DNA of 64,000 nt. It comes from Tubulanus polymorphus (Eukaryota; Animalia; Nemertea). Below are positions 298-41,865 of this stretch, one piece after another (position 1 is the stretch's first letter; every line of letters starts with the position of its first letter). The notes below the pieces were generated by a model that saw only the letters and a program-made list of their open reading frames with translations, searched no databases and had not been told where the DNA came from. Made by a program: the position numbers and the translations under genes. The stretch covers positions 5,528,871 to 5,592,870 of the forward strand of contig NC_134025.1 in NCBI RefSeq assembly GCF_964204645.1, in the 5' to 3' direction.

Positions 298-25020
<24,723 letters not shown>

Positions 25021-26399: not shown

Positions 26400-26650
26400 T
26401 CAATCCGACATGTAAGTGCGCTTGTCCAACAGTTTCCTTATTGCAGAGTCCCAGTTATTTCCTAGTTCAAGAGTCGAATAAAGAATTGGGTATTTGTTGT
26501 CGATATCATGACAGAACTCGAGACTGTCCAGCATTTTTGGAAAGAGTTCTACTTTCACATTTTGCCATTCAGAAGTTCCTGCATCCATCATGTTTTGTAT
26601 CAAATAGCTTTGAATTGTGGATGGATTCAGTGATTGCTCAAGTATTCTAT
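26400..26650 (-). CDS. PARP4: PARP4 last coding exon, C-terminal domain (5' bound approximate), stop at 26400-26402
   Basis: ...TSEWQNVKVELFPKMLDSLEFCHDIDNKYPILYSTLELGNNWDSAIRKLLDKRTYMSD* resembles the human C-terminus ASEWVRRTEGQYPSICPRLELGNDWDSATKQLL. Confidence 0.8.
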
Positions 26651-28329
26651 GTTCGAAATAAAGCATTATCACGACAAGAATAATCAATGTGTTGAACAAC
26701 AAAAATCCATCATTCATTGCTTTCGCACCTATTCAAACAAAAAGATTGAGTAAAATTAGTTCTATGGAATAAAATTGTTGTACAATTTAATTTAACCCTT
26801 TCACTGCTGACTGATCAATACCCTATAGCGCTGGACATAATTTGAAAATTTTGAAAAATTCTGCGCTAGTGTTGAATTACGGGAATACCACGGTGCGTCT
26901 ACACCGCGTCACAGTGTATTGTTATAGTTACTAATATTTCACTATGTTTGACAGGTGCTGCCATCTTTCAATAGAGATAAAAACTAATTACTAATTACAT
27001 CAATACATCGCAGTGCGGTGTACTAGCAAAATCCATCACGGATTCATACACCGCACTGCAGTGTAGACGCACTGAAAGGGTTAATTGCAGAGTCATCAAT
27101 AACAGCACACAGGGCCAAACAAACGGGACACCACTTACCCAAAGATTTTAACCCAGCATTAATGAGCAACATTCTAAGCTCTTTTTCAGGAATAGCGAGA
27201 ATTTCTTGCACCTTCTCACTGAAATCCCAAAAATGTTTCTGCAATGAGAGAAGTTAACAATTACTGTCATGTCCGTTGTAAAAAATAGAAATAATGTTTT
27301 TGTGCAATTTCACATCTAGGAGCCTAACTCATTCATTTACCTGATTATCTTGTAACTGGAAAACATTCTTCAGATCATCTGGAGTAAGTCTTCTTGATGG
27401 CTTGATGATAAACCATTCATCTGAAAAATAAATTTAGTACATGTATATAACTACAAGATCATGCATATACATCAACTATCAAACTGACGTTTTTAAACTT
27501 GACTTTCAGATAATAACAACAAACTAAGATTCACCTTCCATCTGTAGAAATGGTTCCAAAAGGTAACAGTTATCACTTTGTTCTTTCTCATCATCCTAAA
27601 AAGTAATTTCAGACACAGATTTACTCTAGAACCGGTACATGATTCTTCAGTTTTTAAAGTACATAATGCAGCACATTAAAAGTACTGGAAGACAACATAA
27701 ATTTACTTTCCAACTGTTATTGTTACCTACATGCACATCCTAAGAAAACGTGAATATAAGTTACTGGAATAGGAACCTAACCTAGTTATGTGATAGATAA
27801 ATCTAATTTTCTATTGAATTGAGCGATGAATTTACAAAAGCAGTGAACAGCTGATAAATGCAAGCCAACAACAGACTTACTGAATAAATATCAAGTGAAC
27901 ATGGCACCAAATGGCAACTGTAATCACTAAGTTCTTTCATATCATCCTAAAGAGTAACATCACATACAAGTCTACCCTAGGATCAGTACATGATTCTTCA
28001 GCTTTGAAAGTACATAATTCAGCACATCAAAAGTACTGGAAGACAACATGAATTTACTTTCCAACAGTTATTGTTACCTACATGCACATCCTAGGAAAAG
28101 GTGACTAATAAGTTACTGGAATGGGAACCTTACCTAGTTACCGGTACATGATAATTAAATCTAGTTTTCTATTAAATTGCGCAATGAATCTAGAGAAGCA
28201 GTGAACACCTGGTAAGTGCAAGCATGGACTCTGGTCCATGGTGCAAGCCACAGAGGCTCGTATTTGAAGTTTGGGGGTGAACTGTTGCTTAGATCGTCCA
28301 ATATCCAAACTACTATATATATAAGAAGA

Positions 28330-28379
<50 letters not shown>

Positions 28380-31300
28380 CATGGATATTGGATGATCTTA
28401 GCAACAGTTCACCCCCAAACTTCAAATACGAGCCCCTGTGGTGCAAGCCAACAACAGACTTACTGAATAAATATCATCTGAATCAATGTAACTTCGAAGT
28501 GAACGATCAGGCAACACTTTTATCATGGGAGGTAAAATTTTCTGACTACTGGTATTGGTCGATTTTGAAATCTCCCGTTCGACACAATGACCATCAATTA
28601 TATCTCTAAAATTGCGTGGAGGAAAAACCTTTTTCATAGGAAGCTCAGCTTTCCTCCAAGATATAACAGGCTCGGGTATAGTCAAATCTGTAAAAAAAAC
28701 AAAAGCCAAAAATATTTTGTTGACTTACATACCTCTTCAAATTTCGTTAAGTCCTGTAGGTACGTAGGCTTTCTGGCTGAGAACAGAAAAGATTGTCGAG
28801 TCAGTAAAACATGTACCATTGGTCTTATGGTAAGTGAATTTGAACAATACACACACATGTTAATAATACATATTACAAAATTATTTTACTGTTTTGTTAC
28901 CATTTTCATTGTCATCTGATTTTGTTTTCATACATGCATCTTCATCGCTGTCAGGAACTGGCAATTTATTCTGATCTCCAGCATAAGTATAGGTAGTCGG
29001 ACTGCCGCCAAAGGAAAAAGCATCTACTTGATCAGTCACTGTTCTTGGTAATGAAATCATATCCAGAGACTGTTCTTTGAATCTAATTCTCGGCATAGCT
29101 CTGATCATTTTCTTTTTTTCAAATACTCCTGAATCCCTTCCAAAACCACGGTGGCCAGATGTCAGTCCATCATGTTCTACTGGAGAGAGGGCACTGCTAG
29201 AACCAAACCCAGCTGTTGCAGGTGTAGAACTACCTAACGTTGTGGCTTTTTCCAGAAGTGATGAACCAAAACTAACACTATCAGTACATGCATCTGGTCT
29301 TGCAGTGGAGTGTGTACCCCTAATCGATGATCTTATCTTCAATTTTCTAGCACTTTGACCATCTATCGATATTTTTTTCTTAGTAGCTGCTGTTGCTGCG
29401 TAAGTAGTTTCTGTTAATAATGCTTCAGCTCCACTACCAAAAGTTGTGGCTTTATCCAGACGCGATGAACCAAAACTAACACTATCAGTACATGCATCTT
29501 GTGTGACAATGGTGCGACGTAACCTACTCGCTGATCTTCTAAATTTTTCAATGTGTTCATCCAATAATGCGCCGTCTCTAGCACTTTGACCATCTAACGA
29601 TATTTTTTTTTTAGTAGCTGCTGTTGCTGCTGAACTAGTTTCTGCTAATTCATCAGCTCCAAGCAGTGATGCCGCTCTTAGATCCTTTTGAATGGAAGGC
29701 GGGGGAGGTCCTGGTGCAGAAAACCCTCGAGAAACAATCGATGCTTGATCAGTAGATTTTCGCATGAAGGTAGATTTAGATTTAGAAGTAGATTTTCGCA
29801 TGGCCAGAGGAGGTGGTGGGGCAGAAAACATTTGTGGTGCCAAACATGCTTGAACATTAGACTTTAGAATGGTTCCCGGGTGAGTTCCTAAATTTCCAGA
29901 GAGTAGTTTGGGAATTGGTGGGGCTGAGCTCATTGAAGCTTTCAAAGCTAACTTTGGAAGGAGAGGTGGAGGGAGAGATTGTGTCAGAGGTGGTGGAGGA
30001 GGTGGTGGTGGGAGAGTAGGTGGCGGAGGTGGTGGTGGGAGTGTACATGGCAGAGGTGGTGGTGGGGGAGGTGTTGGTCTAGAAAACAAGTTTGATACTT
30101 GATAAGTCGACTTTTGAATGCGTGTTTGGGGAGTTGGAGGAGCAGATATCTTTGAAGCTTTTAAAGTCAATTCTGGCATAGGTGGTGGGACAGGTGGTGA
30201 GGGATATGGTGGGGCAATCATTGAAGCTTTTGGAGTAGACTTTGGCATGTGTGGTGGGACAGGTGGTGGGGAAATCATTGAAGTTTTTGAAAATTTCGTC
30301 AGGGGTGGTCCAGGTGGTGGGGGAGTGGATAAAGCAGAAAATTCTGAAAATGTTTGAAACGCAGACTTTTGAATAGAAGGTGGAGTAAACTTTGAAGAAA
30401 AAAGCGGAAATCCCTTTTTAGCAGAAGCATATATACGCTTGGAAGCCTGAAGGGTATTTGAGGCTAATCTTAATTTTGATAATTGTTGTGAATCTAATTG
30501 TTCGGCTTTTTCATCAGCAATTAGGCCATAAGCATTGTCTGATCGTTGCCTCTGAGCAGAGGGAAGCTGAGAAAACTCTCTAGACCGTCGGGATATACCA
30601 ATAGACATTCCTGGTAGATGATGAGACTTTTCTGATGTTTGCTGCAGGTGCAGTGGGGCTTCCGCTTCTGAAAGTATATTCATAATGAATCTATCTTGAT
30701 AACTACTGTTATAATGTACCTGTATTTGAAATATTGCACAGTATTATTCTGAATGCATGGAATGAAGTGGCCATTAATGAAAAAGCAGAGCTCAAAATCA
30801 CTCATAATCATAAAACATACCAGTTGAAGATACCGCATAATCACATTGTTCTTCTGTTTCCAGTAGGGAACTAACCATCTTATCATCAGGGATTGAATAG
30901 TAACCGCTGTAGAAATCATCGCTAATAGCCTCTGAAATGAAACAGTCACAGCTGCTTATCATGCGCAGTAAAGGTGTAGTACGAGATGGAAACTGAAAGA
31001 GACTACTCACCGATGCAGAACATTTCAGAATCATCATAAACATCTTCAGAAGTTGATAAATATGATTCTGGCGGTGTCTTTATGGGAGCATCGCTCTCTT
31101 GCCAACCGATGTAGGGAAGAAAGTCAACAGTCTCCTCTTGTATAAGTTCATCAAACTGGGGTGAACTCAGTTTCTCATCCTTAAACAAATATGTGGAATG
31201 TTGAAATCCTAAAATTCATTTTGCTTCAATAATCATAAGCGCACAACAATTTGACTCGCTGAGAAAAATATTTTATTAGTGCTAGTAATGTAGGGGTAAA

Positions 31301-34300: not shown

Positions 34301-37300
34301 CTTGTTCTTCGTCTAGATCAATTTGAGTATCATGTAATAAGTCCTGTTTTTCATTCTTATCAAAAATTTCTATGATATATCGCAATCTCTGCTGTTTCGC
34401 ATCATATATCACATACTGATCATCCTAAATTACAGAAGAAATGAACAATCATTTATTGTTCAATTGAGAATAAACTAAGTATAGATTAACTGTTTCTTAT
34501 GGTACCTCAAAATCGCTAGTGTTTCCCTTGTGCGTGCCAACGCCTTGAGTGCTATTGAATCCAGGGGGAGCTGATTTCAGATCAGGGGCATTGTTGTAAT
34601 AATCTTTTATTTTTCCCAAAGCAACCTCACAAACAGCAATTAATTGATGCCGACTACCATTGCCTGGATGAGTATATTTCAAGCTTGTACTAGAAAAACA
34701 AAACCACATTAAACAATGTATTGCAGTTTCTGGTTAGTATATTTCAGATTTCACTGATCATACCTTATCGAATCAGCAAAGTATATTCCATGTCCTAGTT
34801 GTCCATTGTACATTTCAGTTGGGATGTAAGCTTTTGGTAATAGAAGACCTCTACAATTTGAAGGTTTTCAGATATTCCAAAAATTGGGACTAATAGAGAA
34901 TGCCACACTAATATAACGAGAAAGATGATGTCCGAAAAGTTTCCTTTTAAGTAACTGGTAATTCATTGTTTTGACTACAACTTAATAGTCATCTTCCCGA
35001 GATCACTATTTGCAATTTATGAACATATGCTTAACTTACCGTGATAAAATACCCAAGAAGTTGTTTGTAGGAGAGCCATGAAACATGAGTCTTTGATTAG
35101 ATATGTGCTTGGTGAATTCATTGGATTCTATTGATCGATGAACTTTGTAGATATGAAACTCCATTTTACTTTTGACCTTCCTGAAGTACCAGTAAATACA
35201 TAATTTGTTGTATTCATACAGTTAAAAATATCTTTGAAAAAGCGCACAAACATAAGCCATACTGTGAAAGAGATTTCATGATCATATTGTTTATATTCTT
35301 GAAATCTGAATGATCTGGTTGAACCAATTCTAAGTCACATCTTAAAGCCTTATACTGAGCTACAGCACTGGGTTGTTTTTTCCAGCCAGTTGTCTCTGAC
35401 ACCGCAGAGATATCCCGAATTAGCTGCAACAAACCATCATAAGAAATTTTAGTCAATGCAACACAAAGTTTGATAGGGCTTGTGAGCATTGAATAGATCT
35501 AAATTTTTTTAAGGTTTATCATTAAATTATAAGTGGTGATTTGTACCGATACCTGACATAAATCTTGCTTTTGAGCGACATCTCTGTTCGACTTTATTTC
35601 CTCTTTATCACTACTCCCATGATGAGGTATGATATCATAGAATTCATTAGAGAGCAGCCGTAGTTTTTCAACGGGAATCGGGTTGATTGAAAGGACTTTC
35701 TGTATTTCGTACAACACTGATTCAGCCTTCTCAACCTAAAATGCAGAAATATCCTATGTGTGTAAATTCATAATTCAACCAACTTCCACCTATTCACTTC
35801 ATTGCGCAATATCTGTTTTTGATACCTTGTCATTTCCAATCTGTTTTATCCATTCAACACCACCCTCAACATCTCCGATAGAATCATTCCAAATGTTTTT
35901 CACAAATTTTCTAATAGCAGGTGAGATGGATTGGCTTAAGAAATGGTTTTCTTTGAAGAACTGAAAAGAAGATTCATTGAAAAAAAAAGTTATGAATAAT
36001 CAAGAATTTAACTTTCGTTTCAACTTGTGGTGCTGAACATTATTTACAAACCTTCCTTAAAAGTGGCGATCCCATCCCTGGTAATGGTTGAATGTTTTGA
36101 GACATATCGGAATTATCAATATAAGTGTCAGTGAATAATTTAGCATAAAAATCAAGAGCTTCATCTGCATTTTTTGGAAAGGCACACGCTCGTAACACTT
36201 GGTCCTGGACAGAAAGCACATTGATACAGTCAGATTACAAGTCCACAAGTCCACAAACAGCATGACTTCTACAATACTTCAAGAAATGTACGGTCATTGG
36301 TATACTTACATCTTCTTTCCCTTCCATATAAAGTCTGTAGCGGATGACATCCTTTTCTTCATTAGCCATATGCAACTCATAGATTACATAATCAGGTATG
36401 TCCTAGATTTTTTAACAGATGTTCTAAAATCGCTACTCGAAGATGTTATCACATTATGATTATAGGTTTGGTGGAAGTGGTTAGGGGAAAAATTGGTGAT
36501 AAAAACTCAGAAAACCACTTCATTATCCCTTTAAATGCTTGGACCAACATAGGCCTAACTTGGTATTATTCTTTACCTTTGGATTGATAGCATCCTCTTT
36601 TGAAAGAAGTTTTTGTGCAGTTTCAACCTAAGATAAAACATTTCATATATAAATAGGTCATGAAGATTATCTACATATTTGATAAGATAAATAAAAGGTG
36701 TAGGTGTACCTCAAAATATCTCAAATGTGCTCTAGCAATGCTGTACATGTCAGGCCAATGTGGTATGTTCTTATCAACTCCGATTTCCCATAGCTGAGCA
36801 TCATCTATTTCAATACTCTTTTCATTATGCGTATCTACAAGTGGTTAAGTAGTTCAAGAACAACTTCGAAGCAACTCAACTTATAATATGGATTTTCATT
36901 TTGGCACTCACCATCAATGCATGTTATTAAACCTTTTTTAAATTCATGCGATTCCTCGCATTTCTTTGGTTGTGCAACCAAATATTGATTGGAATCCACT
37001 ATTCTACCATTTTTAATGCAAGCATCAATGAATTGCTCTGTAACTATTGGTATTCCGAGTTTTAGCGCAGCCCGGCATTTGTATGTGGTATCTAGATCAT
37101 CAATACCAACTGCAAGCAAGTAGTCGCTCTGACAAATAGAAACAAAATTAATCATTATTCGGATTTGACATTTTCTAGAATAGGCCTGTTATAGTCTAAT
37201 AATAGCCTTAGCCGTTGTTTCAGGCAGGGTGACCCGTAGTCAGTAACCGTCTGCGGTTTAGTTTCACGATCGGATATTTTCACAAACCACAGAATATTTT

Positions 37301-38734: not shown

Positions 38735-41700
38735 GTAAGTTGGTTATATCTTGAGGTTTCAAAAAACTAAAAATGTTTTTACATTGAAATAGAATGTCGT
38801 ACATCATCAAAATATGAGATAATATTTACTCAGAAAAATTTATGTCTTAGGTGCATTTGACTGCTGAAGAACTCAAGCGCATCATAGAAGAAACAAAAGC
38901 AAATCTTGAGTAAGCTTCATTTCTTTGTGTAACTTCATATGAAGTTCCTTTTAAATAGATAAAGGGTAACGAAAATTGGTACAAAATGAATAATAATCAT
39001 TTCAGAGGAATAGAAATTGCCGATGATGATGTATCATCGATGTCTGAGGATGAACTGGATGAACATAAAACGAACATTGGTCGAAAGAGAAAAAAAAAGA
39101 CAGCTAGTAGGCCTAATGGTGATGATGCTGAAGTCGAAAATAACACTGAAGCAGATAATGAGGAAAAAGATGAGCTTGAAGCTGATGATGATGACGACAC
39201 GAACAATGTCATAGAAGCTTATGGTTTTGATGATTACGACGATGAAATTGATGATAATGGTAAGATAAGATTTGTCATTTGGCATGTTGATGTGGGGTAA
39301 GATTGGTTTGTAGGCTTGAATGAAAGATGTTCTCTACTGAGCATTCAGAATAGCAATTACACCTGTCTTTAAGGCTGTACCGGTATGCATGTTTATTCAT
39401 TATCATCATTATTGAAAGTGAAAGTTTGGGTCTTTTTATAGAGGCAATGGATAATTTTGCTGGTTCGGCTTACTATGAAGATAACGCAGATGATCCTTAC
39501 ATAACTTTGAAAGATGAAGTAAGTATAGGATTCATTGTTTTACAAAATTTCTTCATAGGTCTTTTATTCTGTGGCTTTGACTGAATATATTATTTTCATT
39601 TATTTTAGGACAGCGACGAGGAAGATTTTGTCATAAAACCAACAGATAACATGATTCTTGTTCCTCGAGTAAAAACGGAACAATGTTTAATGGAAGTTTA
39701 TGGTACGACTCTCAAGCACGCCTGAACCGACGAAGTCCAACTTCCTGCTATTCCAATATTCCATATTCTATTATGTTTATTTCTTGTAGTATACAATGAC
39801 TCTGATGGTGCTTTATATGTTCACCATGATTTTATGCTTACGTCTTTCCCACTCGCTATTGAATGGATGAATTATAACCCGGATGGCAGTCCTGGTGGTA
39901 AGTCATTTATTTCATACACTTTAAAGCATAGTTCCATACACCATTATACTGAACAGAGATAAGTCGATTTCAAATTAAGAGATACTGGTTACTCAGTAAT
40001 TTGCTCTTTTTGTGTTTGTGAGTTCAGGCAATTTTGTGGCAGTTGGGACAATGGAACCTGTGATAGACATTTGGGATATTGATCTTGTTGATAGTGTAGA
40101 ACCTACATGTGTATTAGGTGAAAAAAAACAACTTAAGAAGAAAAAGAAGGTAGTTATTTCTTTCAATTCTGGTAGACTTGTATATGTGTGCATTATAATT
40201 GATAAACCAATTATTTCTTAAGCATCATGTTCTCTTTTTAGAAAACTGGTGTTGTTGGTGGTCACACAGATGCTGTTCTAGCGTTGTCATGGAATTCACA
40301 TGCAAGGTTTGTATAAATCCTGGTCAGATCTGTATGTATGCTACAATACAAGTTAGCAATACTTCATGAGGTATTTGTCAATATGTGTTATAGGAATGTG
40401 CTAGCTAGTGGTTCAGCTGATGAAACAATTGCTTTGTGGGATCTAAGTCAAAGAAATGTTGTGAAAACGATCCACAAACACACAGATAAGGTTATATTCA
40501 TTCTAATACATGATTTCCGTACATTAACATACCGTACCGAAGTTGCAAAGTGAAATCTAAACTCTATTCTCAGGTGCAAGCTTTAAAATGGCATCCATTG
40601 GAGGCACAGACTTTGCTGAGTGGTGGTTTTGATAAGTAAGGAATATGTATCAAGTGTAGTTTAATTGTAAATTTTGTTTTAATGCTTGTCTCGACACGGA
40701 TTTGTTAAAGTTTTTAAATAACTGTTGTATTTCCATGTTGCATTGTAGAATAGTGAATTTATATGATTGCCGGAGTCCGGATGATAGCAACAAGTCATGG
40801 ACGCTTCAAGGAGAAGTGGAGAACATAACCTGGAATCCTTTTTCGCCGTACAACTTTTTGGTGAGACGTAATTATTGAATGACTCACTGGGGTAATCATT
40901 GTAAGAATCAAAGTACTAAACCTTTTGTTTATTTCAGGCATCAACCGATGGTGGTTTTGTTTATCTGTTAGATGTAAGGACAGATAAGACACTATTCACT
41001 TTAAGCGCTCACACAAGTCCTTGTACAGGTAATTCTTATCAGATTGTCATCGAAATTGCTAATTTAAGACGGACAAAAAAGTTTATTTGGAGGATTGAAA
41101 CATCGAATTCAATAGATTTTGTTCATAACTGCTTTCATTTGAAGATGCAATTTAATTACTTTTGTAATCGTTTTGAAGGAATTAGTCTTAGTAGTCGAGT
41201 GCCTGGATTACTAGTGACGTCTTCTACTGATGGTACCATGAAAATATGGGATATTTTGGACGACAAACCAAAAATGATTCGAGAAAAGCCCTTAGGACAG
41301 GTACAACACAGTCAGAAATCAATTACCTTCTGGTAGATTCTATGCTTTGTCCTGGTGTCCTAATGATGAATCTTATTATTTTCTCAGGGTCAACTGATGT
41401 GCTGTGCTTGTTGCCCAGATGCTCCATATGTATTCGCTCTCGGAGGCAGTAAAGACTTGGCAGTTTTAGATATTCGAGAATCTGCAGATGGTAATATTAC
41501 ACAATCCAATGCTATTTCTCATCAACCCATATTTTCATATTAATTGTGTTATTTACATCTAAATCTGTTGTTTTACAGTGAAGAAACATTTTCAAAATCG
41601 AACTGAATTGACACCAGATAGTCAGACTCAAACGACAAGTAGCGTTTCTGAATTTTCAACACTCGATCTTAATTCAAAATCTTCTACGGGAACTAAATCT

Positions 41701-41787
41701 GATACAGCATCGTCAACGTCATCATCAGTCTCAGCTGCCTCTTATAAAAGACCCAATAAGAAAAAGAAGAAGAAACCTGGAAAATGA
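38666..41787 (+). CDS. PWP1: PWP1 (periodic tryptophan protein 1 homologue, WD40-repeat ribosome-biogenesis factor) gene, 15 coding exons, 1644 nt CDS = 547 aa
   Basis: Spliced translation matches human PWP1 throughout. [23 protein letters not shown] (human VTCVAWVRCGVAKETPDK); acidic region; PYITLKD; [93 protein letters not shown]; [12 protein letters not shown]; [17 protein letters not shown]; [21 protein letters not shown]; [11 protein letters not shown]; [28 protein letters not shown]; [11 protein letters not shown]; [16 protein letters not shown]; KKKKKKPGK*. All introns GT-AG, phases consistent, CDS length divisible by 3. Confidence 0.93.
38851..38909 (+). CDS. PWP1: PWP1 exon 2
   Basis: Acceptor ttag at 38850; [20 protein letters not shown]; donor GA|GTAAGC. 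Confidence 0.8.
39006..39259 (+). CDS. PWP1: PWP1 exon 3 (acidic region)
   Basis: Acceptor ttcag at 39005; donor G|GTAAGA at 39260. Confidence 0.85.
39442..39518 (+). CDS. PWP1: PWP1 exon 4
   Basis: Acceptor tatag at 39441; [25 protein letters not shown]; donor GAA|GTAAGT. Confidence 0.85.
39609..39702 (+). CDS. PWP1: PWP1 exon 5
   Basis: Acceptor ttttag; [31 protein letters not shown]; donor G|GTACGA. Confidence 0.85.
39790..39897 (+). CDS. PWP1: PWP1 exon 6
   Basis: Acceptor ttgtag; [35 protein letters not shown]; donor G|GTAAGT. Confidence 0.85.
40028..40149 (+). CDS. PWP1: PWP1 exon 7
   Basis: Acceptor gttcag; [41 protein letters not shown]; donor AAG|GTAGTT. Confidence 0.85.
40242..40306 (+). 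CDS. PWP1: PWP1 exon 8
   Basis: Acceptor ttttag; [22 protein letters not shown]; donor AG|GTTTGT. Confidence 0.8.
40394..40490 (+). CDS. PWP1: PWP1 exon 9
   Basis: Acceptor tatag; [32 protein letters not shown]; donor AAG|GTTATA. Confidence 0.8.
40574..40635 (+). CDS. PWP1: PWP1 exon 10
   Basis: Acceptor tctcag; [21 protein letters not shown]; donor AA|GTAAGG. Confidence 0.85.
40749..40860 (+). CDS. PWP1: PWP1 exon 11
   Basis: Acceptor ttgtag; [37 protein letters not shown]; donor TTG|GTGAGA. Confidence 0.85.
40938..41028 (+). CDS. PWP1: PWP1 exon 12
   Basis: Acceptor atttcag; [30 protein letters not shown]; donor G|GTAATT. Confidence 0.85.
41179..41300 (+). CDS. PWP1: PWP1 exon 13
   Basis: Acceptor ttgaag; [40 protein letters not shown]; donor CAG|GTACAA. 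Confidence 0.85.
41388..41490 (+). CDS. PWP1: PWP1 exon 14
   Basis: Acceptor ttctcag; [34 protein letters not shown]; donor G|GTAATA. Confidence 0.85.
41579..41787 (+). CDS. PWP1: PWP1 exon 15 (terminal; TGA stop 41785-41787)
   Basis: Acceptor ttttacag; [26 protein letters not shown]...[15 protein letters not shown]. Confidence 0.85.
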
Positions 41788-41865
41788 TATAAACATATTT
41801 GAGCTACTTGTAAAATTGATTTTATAGAATATTTGTTGACTGCTTTTTGCATTTAATGTCTGCGA

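Follow-up and report, generated by a model that had tools for sequence, protein, structure and literature searches.

The segment lies in a 64-kb window (the whole stretch of Tubulanus polymorphus DNA analysed, in whose numbering all coordinates are given) and is the 3' part of a PARP4-like gene on the minus strand. Minus-strand exon pieces match Pfam domains in the order BRCT (3e-05), PARP (4e-08), VIT (9.6e-25) and VWA_3 (7e-06), which is the order found in PARP4. RefSeq names the gene PARP4-like, in agreement with the call made in an earlier sequence-only reading of the locus. Using HMMER we found its C-terminal domain to be homologous to that of PARP4 from Lingula (4.3e-12), Branchiostoma, Protopterus and Liolophura, and the alignment has the motifs FW..LG..SLG and LELG..W in common. 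In mammalian PARP4 this domain is the MVP-binding region. The query was a 285-aa model, and an exhaustive search of representative proteins yielded the RefSeq match: the sequence-derived peptide A+B+C+D+E+F equals residues 1819-2103 of XP_074640441.1, the PARP4-like isoform X3 of T. polymorphus, with 100% identity. Between the VWA and the C-terminal domain lies a linker that includes a 1767-nt proline-rich exon and the alternative exons A, M, B and C. A protein search with the PARP/VIT/VWA part returned only fragmentary or distant PARP4 relatives, and none of these reached the A-C linker. Conservation of the B and C peptides in other phyla was not detected in the PARP4 alignment; both are within the linker, and they are beyond cross-species confirmation since the linker has no detectable conservation in other phyla.

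All eight RefSeq isoforms of the gene, whose protein records fall in the range XP_074640424.1 to XP_074640495.1, map exactly to the minus strand with GT-AG introns, as determined by exact spliced mapping. Exon A (28464-28687, 224 nt, phase 1 to 0) is used in X1, X2, X3 and X6; it is open in a single frame and ends in phase 0 with ...TAT TCA/GTAAGT. It is replaced in X4, X5 and X8 by exon M (28733-28776, 44 nt, phase 1 to 0, ARKPTYLQDLTKFEE), and X7 reads through past the exon M donor to a stop at 28682. Two small exons follow. Exon B (27881-27946, 66 nt, phase 0 to 0, DDMKELSDYSCHLVPCSLDIYS) is a chimeric cassette in which acceptor, donor (ctctttag/.../gtaagt), open frame and compatible phase are all kept. 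Exon C (27535-27595, 61 nt, phase 0 to 1, DDEKEQSDNCYLLEPFLQME+G, donor AAG/GTGAAT) is present in all full-length isoforms, X1-X5. Exon D (27341-27420, 80 nt, phase 1 to 0) and exon E (27139-27238, 100 nt, phase 0 to 1) lead to exon F (26400-26728), the last coding exon, which includes the stop codon and holds most of the conserved PARP4 C-terminal domain.

Exon D is open in frame 2 only and must therefore be entered in phase 1. The sequence-only reading had set the ends of exons A and D exactly as in RefSeq, with the correct phases, and had concluded that the phases across the intervening intron do not close unless a small exon is missing or a weak alternative donor is used. The missing small exon is exon C, located in the downstream one of two tandem units. 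The path runs from A, which ends in phase 0, through the optional exon B (0 to 0) and exon C (0 to 1) into D, and in isoform X1 the frame carries through each of the 33 coding exons. The apparent break is thus not a real anomaly once the small exons within the duplication are counted, and both were already in the public RefSeq annotation.

The annotated isoforms take several paths through this region: A-B-C-D in X1 and X3, A-C-D in X2, M-B-C-D in X4 and M-C-D in X5, so that exon B is included in X1, X3 and X4 and skipped in X2 and X5. Exon use was read from XP_ records, which are computational NCBI models, and inclusion or skipping of B is meant here as annotated; the isoforms probably reflect real transcripts. 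As predicted from these models, exon B acts as a cassette of 22 residues within an acidic linker that is poorly conserved and immediately precedes the conserved C-terminal domain. A further alternative acceptor, ttgtcttccag/TAC TTT TGA (28027-28035, minus strand), lies 89 nt upstream of exon B. Acceptors of this type give the truncated 'YF*' isoforms X6 and X8, whose protein sequence is compatible with either this copy in unit 1 of the tandem repeat described below or its twin in unit 2 (27684-27676, TAC TTT TAA). The annotation of the gene therefore comprises several alternative C-terminal linkers as well as truncated forms that lack the conserved C-terminal domain. This variety could matter for spiralian vault biology; it has no bearing on any long-standing open question.

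The intron between exons A and D contains two tandem units. Alignment of 27547-27865 with 27897-28223 gave 83.5% identity over 327 nt (E=6.5e-83), bearing out the pair of units described earlier. Unit 1 (27900-28482, minus strand, 583 nt, or about 358 nt minus two insertions) takes in the final ~14-18 nt of exon A, crosses the intron and ends in the C-like 5' part of exon B. Unit 2 (27547-27899, minus strand, ~353 nt) is without a transposon insertion and has an empty matching site. The copied exon end and donor noted in the sequence-only reading are likewise present: the donor block at exon A (28442-28476, minus strand; the last 13 exon nt plus the first 22 intron nt) and that at exon B (27859-27893) are identical at 35 of 35 positions, and identity over the longer stretch 27859-27899 is 39/41. 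Homology ends at the proposed breakpoints. Exon A before its last ~18 nt is unlike the unit, the 3' end of exon C is unlike that of exon B, and no homology above shuffled controls was found past the breakpoints. The homology covers both the neighbouring exons and the intron sequence beside them, as in other duplicated exons.

Unit 1 also contains the hairpin, a 192-bp non-coding element with terminal inverted repeats (28249-28440, no strand assigned) that is MITE-like in its build. The inverted repeats begin CACAG[G/A]GGCTCGTATTTGAAG..., match over 34 nt with one mismatch and extend right to the element ends; as arms (28248-28344 and 28345-28441) the two halves are 87% complementary around a core of perfect (TA)21 at 28334-28375. 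Folded as RNA the inverted repeat reaches -140.9 kcal/mol (z=-22.7 vs shuffles). The earlier description of an inverted repeat around (TA)21 is accurate except in arm length, which outside the TA run is ~64-65 nt rather than 68 bp; the element also does not abut the exon directly, as had been stated, but begins 23 nt after the end of exon A. An 8-bp direct repeat, GCTTGCAC, flanks it as a target-site duplication (28441-28448 and 28241-28248, minus strand), and the matching site in unit 2, GGCTTGCA/TTTATCAG, is empty, with a single GCTTGCA and neither the element nor the second target copy. Next to the element, at 28216-28240 (minus strand), a 17-nt near-palindrome, CATGGACCAGAGTCCAT, is followed by a third GCTTGCAC. 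This stretch is absent from unit 2 and is possibly the footprint of an earlier insertion into the same target. Chance falls far short of explaining the tandem units, the copied donor and exon end, or the inverted repeat. Placement of the hairpin inside an exon, or as a block on the exon A donor, was rejected, as annotated isoforms use that donor. Membership in an Rfam miRNA family was also rejected for 27200-28900, where the best match, MIR8007, scored 79.3 bits against a threshold of 195; both strands gave sub-threshold matches to a number of unrelated long-hairpin models, and these are generic hairpin similarity only.

From these features we propose the following course of events. In an old tandem duplication of ~355 bp, one breakpoint would have fallen within exon A, ~14-18 nt short of the donor, and the other within exon C, ~50 nt past the acceptor. 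Exons A and C would thereby have been left intact and a chimeric exon B newly made between them, consisting of the acceptor and ~50 nt of the 5' part of C joined in frame to ~14 nt and the donor of A. Later, a non-autonomous DNA transposon of 192 bp, with (TA)21 at its core, would have inserted 23 nt downstream of the exon A donor, yielding the 8-bp target-site duplication; the inserted element is, on this proposal, the hairpin. The sequence-only reading had suggested repeated duplication of an exon/intron boundary, for which a single tandem duplication with its ends in two consecutive exons is the better account, and a palindrome-forming insertion, with which the terminal inverted repeats, the target-site duplication and the empty unit 2 site agree. 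We put the probability of this reading as a whole (a duplication-born chimeric exon B, the frame A-[B]-C-D and the later 192-bp insertion) at about 85%; the order of events, duplication and then insertion, is inferred.

Other ways of closing the frame would bypass exon C. Exon A could be extended by 4 nt to the weak donor GTAA/GTCTGT and joined to D, or a 13-nt micro-exon, GATGTGCATGTAG, could be used at 28090-28078 or 27739-27727. Both routes fit the arithmetic from phase 0 to phase 1. Among 43 open AG..GT segments of phase 0 to 1 between A and D, ranked with generic splice matrices, exon C came first, with the micro-exon candidates close behind in second and third place; these lie within the best-conserved block of the unit. 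Neither route, however, is used in any of the eight annotated isoforms. For later scoring the generic matrices were replaced by one built from the gene's own 32 introns, in which the exon C donor ranks 16/32 and its acceptor 5/32; the splice sites of exon B score within the span of the gene's real ones. The weak donor scored 1.32, below all 32 donors of the gene (minimum 3.14), and this option of the sequence-only reading was rejected outright. A frame closed without exon C is very improbable. The tandem repeat itself could in principle be an assembly artefact, for example a falsely duplicated haplotype segment, for which near-identical copies would be expected. The units instead differ by ~14-16%, with indels and an insertion in one of them only, and the annotated isoforms take exons from both; we rejected this explanation outright on the divergence, the indels and the one-unit insertion, and consider its chance to be close to nil.

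The hairpin and exon B allow for alternatives of their own. Instead of a mobile-element insertion, the hairpin could be a local inverted duplication or a palindrome generated during replication; fold-back synthesis could have started from the perfect (TA)21 centre, and no second copy of the 192-bp element was found within the 64-kb window. Against this stand the sharp boundaries with a perfect 8-bp direct repeat on either side, inverted repeats that run to the very ends of the element and the intact unit 2 site with one target copy, which together form the signature of transposition. A local origin is thus quite improbable, and the hairpin next to the small exons is, to judge from its sequence, probably an ordinary small transposon insertion. 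Exon B had earlier been called a pseudo-exon, and it may be just that: a non-functional, drifting by-product of the duplication that exists at noise level or in annotation only, the real message being A-C-D as in X2 and X5. The coding parts of B and C align without gaps and are identical at 39 of 52 positions, and the 13 differences amount to a divergence that exceeds the 13.7% between the introns of the two units (25%, Fisher P=0.057). Each of the nine codons that differ carries a non-synonymous change (9/9), and the divergence between B and C gives no sign that the peptide is under purifying selection. Exon B is without cross-species conservation, and when a drifting copy was simulated, chance alone preserved AG, GT and an open frame in ~14-50% of the simulations. 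Set against these observations, the annotation treats exon B as a real cassette exon of 66 nt and includes it in three of the five full-length RefSeq isoforms, its donor block is fully identical to that of A despite the intron divergence (P~0.006), and its coding alignment is free of indels where that of the intron has 7 gap columns. Scored by the own-intron matrix against the real sites of the gene, its acceptor ranks 12/32 and its donor, which has the same sequence as that of A, 25/32. We regard the pseudo-exon as unlikely and favor the duplication-born cassette, in line with the earlier suggestion that the repeats may create alternative small exons.

The two best-conserved pieces of the unit are the 22 nt that follow the donors of A and B and a 27-nt box in mid-intron, TAGGATGTGCATGTAGGTAACAATAAC, which lies ~30 nt upstream of the alternative acceptor that introduces a stop. 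Donor block and box are predicted to form an RNA duplex of -16.5 and -17.7 kcal/mol, and only 1.8% of neighbourhood windows pair as well. The predicted duplex is suggestive, falling short of the significance required for a claim. The duplicated unit might carry its own RNA-structure splicing switch, in which a stem between donor block and box hides or loops out the 5' splice site, but we consider this a long shot. If true, a regulated module would have been copied by the duplication, and competing stems, together with the ~95-bp transposon hairpin present in unit 1 only, would choose between inclusion of B, skipping and the truncating acceptor.

Overall, the analysis shows the alarm to have been a false one: with an intact gene and a closed frame, the locus gives no indication of gene breakage, mis-assembly or unusual splicing. 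It appears to be a tidy but ordinary tandem exon duplication that feeds alternative splicing, as judged from the annotated models. Its value lies in showing, in a clean and datable case, how an in-frame alternative exon can come from a short intragenic tandem duplication with both ends in exons, with the later transposon insertion labelling which copy of the unit is which.

Like vertebrate PARP4, the vault poly/mono-ADP-ribosyltransferase, the T. polymorphus gene combines BRCT-PARP-VIT-VWA with a homologous C-terminal domain; unlike it, it has a lineage-specific linker between VWA and the C-terminal domain. The hairpin element resembles MITEs, whose families with 8-bp target-site duplications include hAT-type ones, in that it is 192 bp long, non-coding and intronic, with long terminal inverted repeats, an AT-rich, microsatellite core and an 8-bp target-site duplication. 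It differs from hAT elements in that its inverted repeat begins CACAG, which is no recognised hAT terminus. Tandem exon duplication is a source of alternatively spliced exons (reviewed by Ivanov & Pervouchine 2022, PMC9013439), and about 10% of animal genes have tandemly duplicated exons according to a 2002 survey cited in PMC9013439. As in such genes, exons B and C are adjacent homologous exons of one gene that go back to a local tandem duplication. Each retains its splice sites and an open frame, and the new copy is, by annotation, the alternative one. In contrast to classic mutually exclusive exons, the pattern here is one of cassette inclusion and skipping: B and C occur together in X1, X3 and X4, and B is never found in an isoform that lacks C, a combination that would break the frame as D would be reached in phase 0 and needs phase 1. 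The duplicated segment also differs from typical tandem exon duplications in that it does not hold a whole exon but ends inside two neighbouring exons, and it is because of these breakpoints that the new exon would be a chimera, starting with the 5' part of C and finishing with the 3' part of A.

The BRCT, PARP catalytic, VIT and VWA domains follow one another in exons on the minus strand between about 37547 and 26400, an order that corresponds to PARP4 architecture. We assembled a query peptide for the 3' end of this gene (exons A, B, C, D, E and F) from the sequence alone. In an exhaustive HMMER search 285/285 residues were identical (100%) to a 2103-aa protein, XP_074640441.1, 'protein mono-ADP-ribosyltransferase PARP4-like isoform X3 [Tubulanus polymorphus]'. 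For this palaeonemertean ribbon worm RefSeq lists eight isoforms of the protein (X1-X8). Exact spliced mapping placed all eight in the window with GT-AG introns and zero mismatches, identifying it as the PARP4-like locus. A word-indexed protein search returned zero matches for the same peptide and, with another query, only matches below 812 aa; since this index apparently lacks long proteins, its 'no hit' does not show that a large eukaryotic protein is absent. By eye, many minus-strand exons at ~15000-24000 form an axonemal dynein heavy chain candidate (AAA+ motifs GPTGTGKS and GPAGTGKT), and ~39000-41800 on the plus strand holds a WD-repeat candidate resembling PWP1 with an acidic N-terminus.

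Exon A (28687-28464, minus strand, 224 nt) ends ...GAT ATT TAT TCA|GTAAGT in phase 0, and exon D (27420-27341, minus, 80 nt) has a single open frame that must be entered in phase 1. The sequence-only reading had read these boundaries and phases, the tandem repeats, the copied exon end with its donor and the (TA)21 inverted repeat accurately; its claim that the frame fails to close from A to D does not hold, as the 33 coding exons of X1 all chain in phase. Of its two explanations, a missing small exon was the right one. Using AG acceptors and GT donors, we picked two candidate exons inside the repeats ahead of any database result: B (27946-27881, minus, 66 nt, ctctttag|GAT...TCA|gtaagt, phase 0 to 0, peptide DDMKELSDYSCHLVPCSLDIYS) and C (27595-27535, minus, 61 nt, ctttttag|GAT...AAG|gtgaat, phase 0 to 1, peptide DDEKEQSDNCYLLEPFLQME). 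Exon C closes the frame, with a GAT codon formed by its final G and the AT opening D. Of the 43 AG..GT segments between A and D that are open with phase 0 to 1, it ranks first. The RefSeq models agree exactly with the sequence-derived exons: X1 and X3 are A-B-C-D and X2 is A-C-D. Scored with a leave-one-out matrix from the gene's own 32 introns, exon C ranks 16/32 for its donor and 5/32 for its acceptor, and exon B 12/32 for its acceptor, its donor matching that of A in sequence and score. The other explanation, a weak alternative donor (GTAA|GTCTGT), scores 1.32, below the minimum of the real donors (3.14), and is used in 0/8 isoforms.

The annotation also has alternative exons upstream. Exon M (28733-28776, minus, 44 nt, ARKPTYLQDLTKFEE, phase 1 to 0), non-homologous to the 224-nt exon A, replaces it in X4 (with B), X5 (without B) and X8; M and A together would shift the frame. 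X7 reads through the donor of M to a stop at the start of exon A (28682-28776, minus). Between the BRCT and PARP regions lies a 153-nt in-frame exon (36052-36204, minus; 51 aa, DQVLRACAFPKNADEALDFYAKLF...) that X3 alone skips. A single 1767-nt exon (28901-30667, minus) encodes a proline-rich, low-complexity linker with PPPPPPP runs and at least two copies of an ~80-aa repeat (...ATAATKKKIS.DGQSAR...DACTDSVSFGSS.L.KATT.GS...); none of the aligned PARP4 relatives has an equivalent stretch.

The direct repeats at 27547-27865 and 27897-28223 align over 327 nt with 83.5% identity (E=6.5e-83), and the exon end and donor at 28442-28476 recur at 27859-27893 with 35/35 identical positions. The tandem repeats, the donor-block copy and the inverted repeat are not chance products. 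Read 5' to 3' on the minus strand, exon A, ending TGATATTTATTCA, is followed by gtaagtctgttgttggcttgca, two insertions, intron unit 1, exon B, unit 2 and exon C, where B is C-like for ~50 nt and continues with TTGATATTTATTCA and then gtaagtctgttgttggcttgca. This order is exactly as predicted by a single tandem duplication of a segment reaching from ~14-18 nt before the donor of A to ~50 nt after the acceptor of C. Such an event would have left A and C whole and produced a chimeric exon B at the junction of the two copies; the chimeric join is in frame (~52 + 14 = 66 nt). Homology ends at both proposed breakpoints: neither the rest of exon A compared with the unit, nor the 3' end of C and its downstream intron compared with those of B, shows resemblance beyond the shuffled range. 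The units measure ~358 nt (unit 1, without insertions) and ~353 nt (unit 2). Their introns differ by 13.7% (37/270), which indicates that the duplication is old and excludes an assembly artefact.

The arms of the inverted repeat (28248-28344 and 28345-28441), centred on a perfect (TA)21 (28334-28375), are 87% complementary and fold with -140.9 kcal/mol (z=-22.7). Within it lies a 192-bp element (28249-28440) with 34-nt terminal inverted repeats differing at one position, CACAG[G/A]GGCTCGTATTTGAAGTTTGGGGGTGAAC, and with a copy of GCTTGCAC on each flank (28441-28448 and 28241-28248). The equivalent position in unit 2 has a single GCTTGCA and no insertion, i.e. an empty site. Judged from its inverted-repeat ends, the flanking 8-bp copies and this empty site, the hairpin appears to be a non-autonomous DNA-transposon insertion that postdates the duplication. 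Target duplications of 8 bp are typical of hAT-type elements. The 64-kb window contains no second copy of the 192-bp element, and Rfam gave only sub-threshold matches on both strands, to long-hairpin miRNA models. The element starts 23 nt past the donor of exon A, which four annotated isoforms use; the hairpin thus does not abolish it. Adjoining the element at 28216-28240 (minus), the 17-nt near-palindrome CATGGACCAGAGTCCAT precedes a third GCTTGCAC; unit 2 has neither. They may be what an earlier insertion left on excision, which would mean that the same target was hit twice. The intron between E and F carries a 293-bp element (26792-27084) whose 16-nt terminal inverted repeats (TTAACCCTTTCACTGC / GCACTGAAAGGGTTAA) are 94% complementary and which has additional inverted repeats inside; given its TTAA ends, it may be a non-autonomous element of the piggyBac-like kind.

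Conservation between the units is uneven. The central intron block (28100-27990) is identical at 103/111 positions, compared with 169/218 elsewhere (Fisher P=3.6e-4), its longest identical run being TAGGATGTGCATGTAGGTAACAATAAC. It also holds a strong alternative acceptor, ttgtcttccag|TACTTTTGA, at 28035, 89 nt upstream of B, with a twin at 27684 upstream of C; both (28027-28035 and 27676-27684, minus) lead to an immediate stop (TAC TTT TGA/TAA). In the RefSeq models, use of this acceptor accounts for X6 and X8, 'YF*' truncated isoforms without the conserved C-terminal domain. The donor-adjacent conserved block can pair with a 27-nt mid-intron box, with energies of -16.5 kcal/mol in one unit and -17.7 kcal/mol in the other, as good a pairing being found in only 1.8% of 3996 neighbourhood windows. 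A regulatory stem, gene conversion or chance could each account for the uneven conservation and the pairing, which we regard as a lead rather than a finding.

Whether exon B is functional can be weighed from its predicted use and its divergence. It is present in 3/5 full-length annotated models, its donor block has stayed identical to that of A (35/35) against the 13.7% background (P~0.006), and its coding part is free of indels, compared with 7 gap columns in the intron alignment. However, coding divergence between B and C (13/52 positions) exceeds that of the intron (Fisher P=0.057), and 9/9 changed codons are non-synonymous. The A-B-C stretch is moreover an acidic, lineage-specific linker, sequence conserved in other PARP4 proteins becoming alignable only in exon D, and in 14-50% of simulations a drifting copy was still spliceable and open. 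To our knowledge, transcript alignments are the only basis on which NCBI models alternative isoforms.

Exons B and C were already in RefSeq; added here is how they arose and what the hairpin is. Tandem exon duplication is well documented as a source of alternative splicing (PMC9013439), and the PARP4-like units share its defining homology and intact splice sites. They differ in that the proposed breakpoints lie inside exons, giving a chimeric exon, and in that the predicted pattern is cassette use instead of a mutually exclusive choice, with both B and C in X1.
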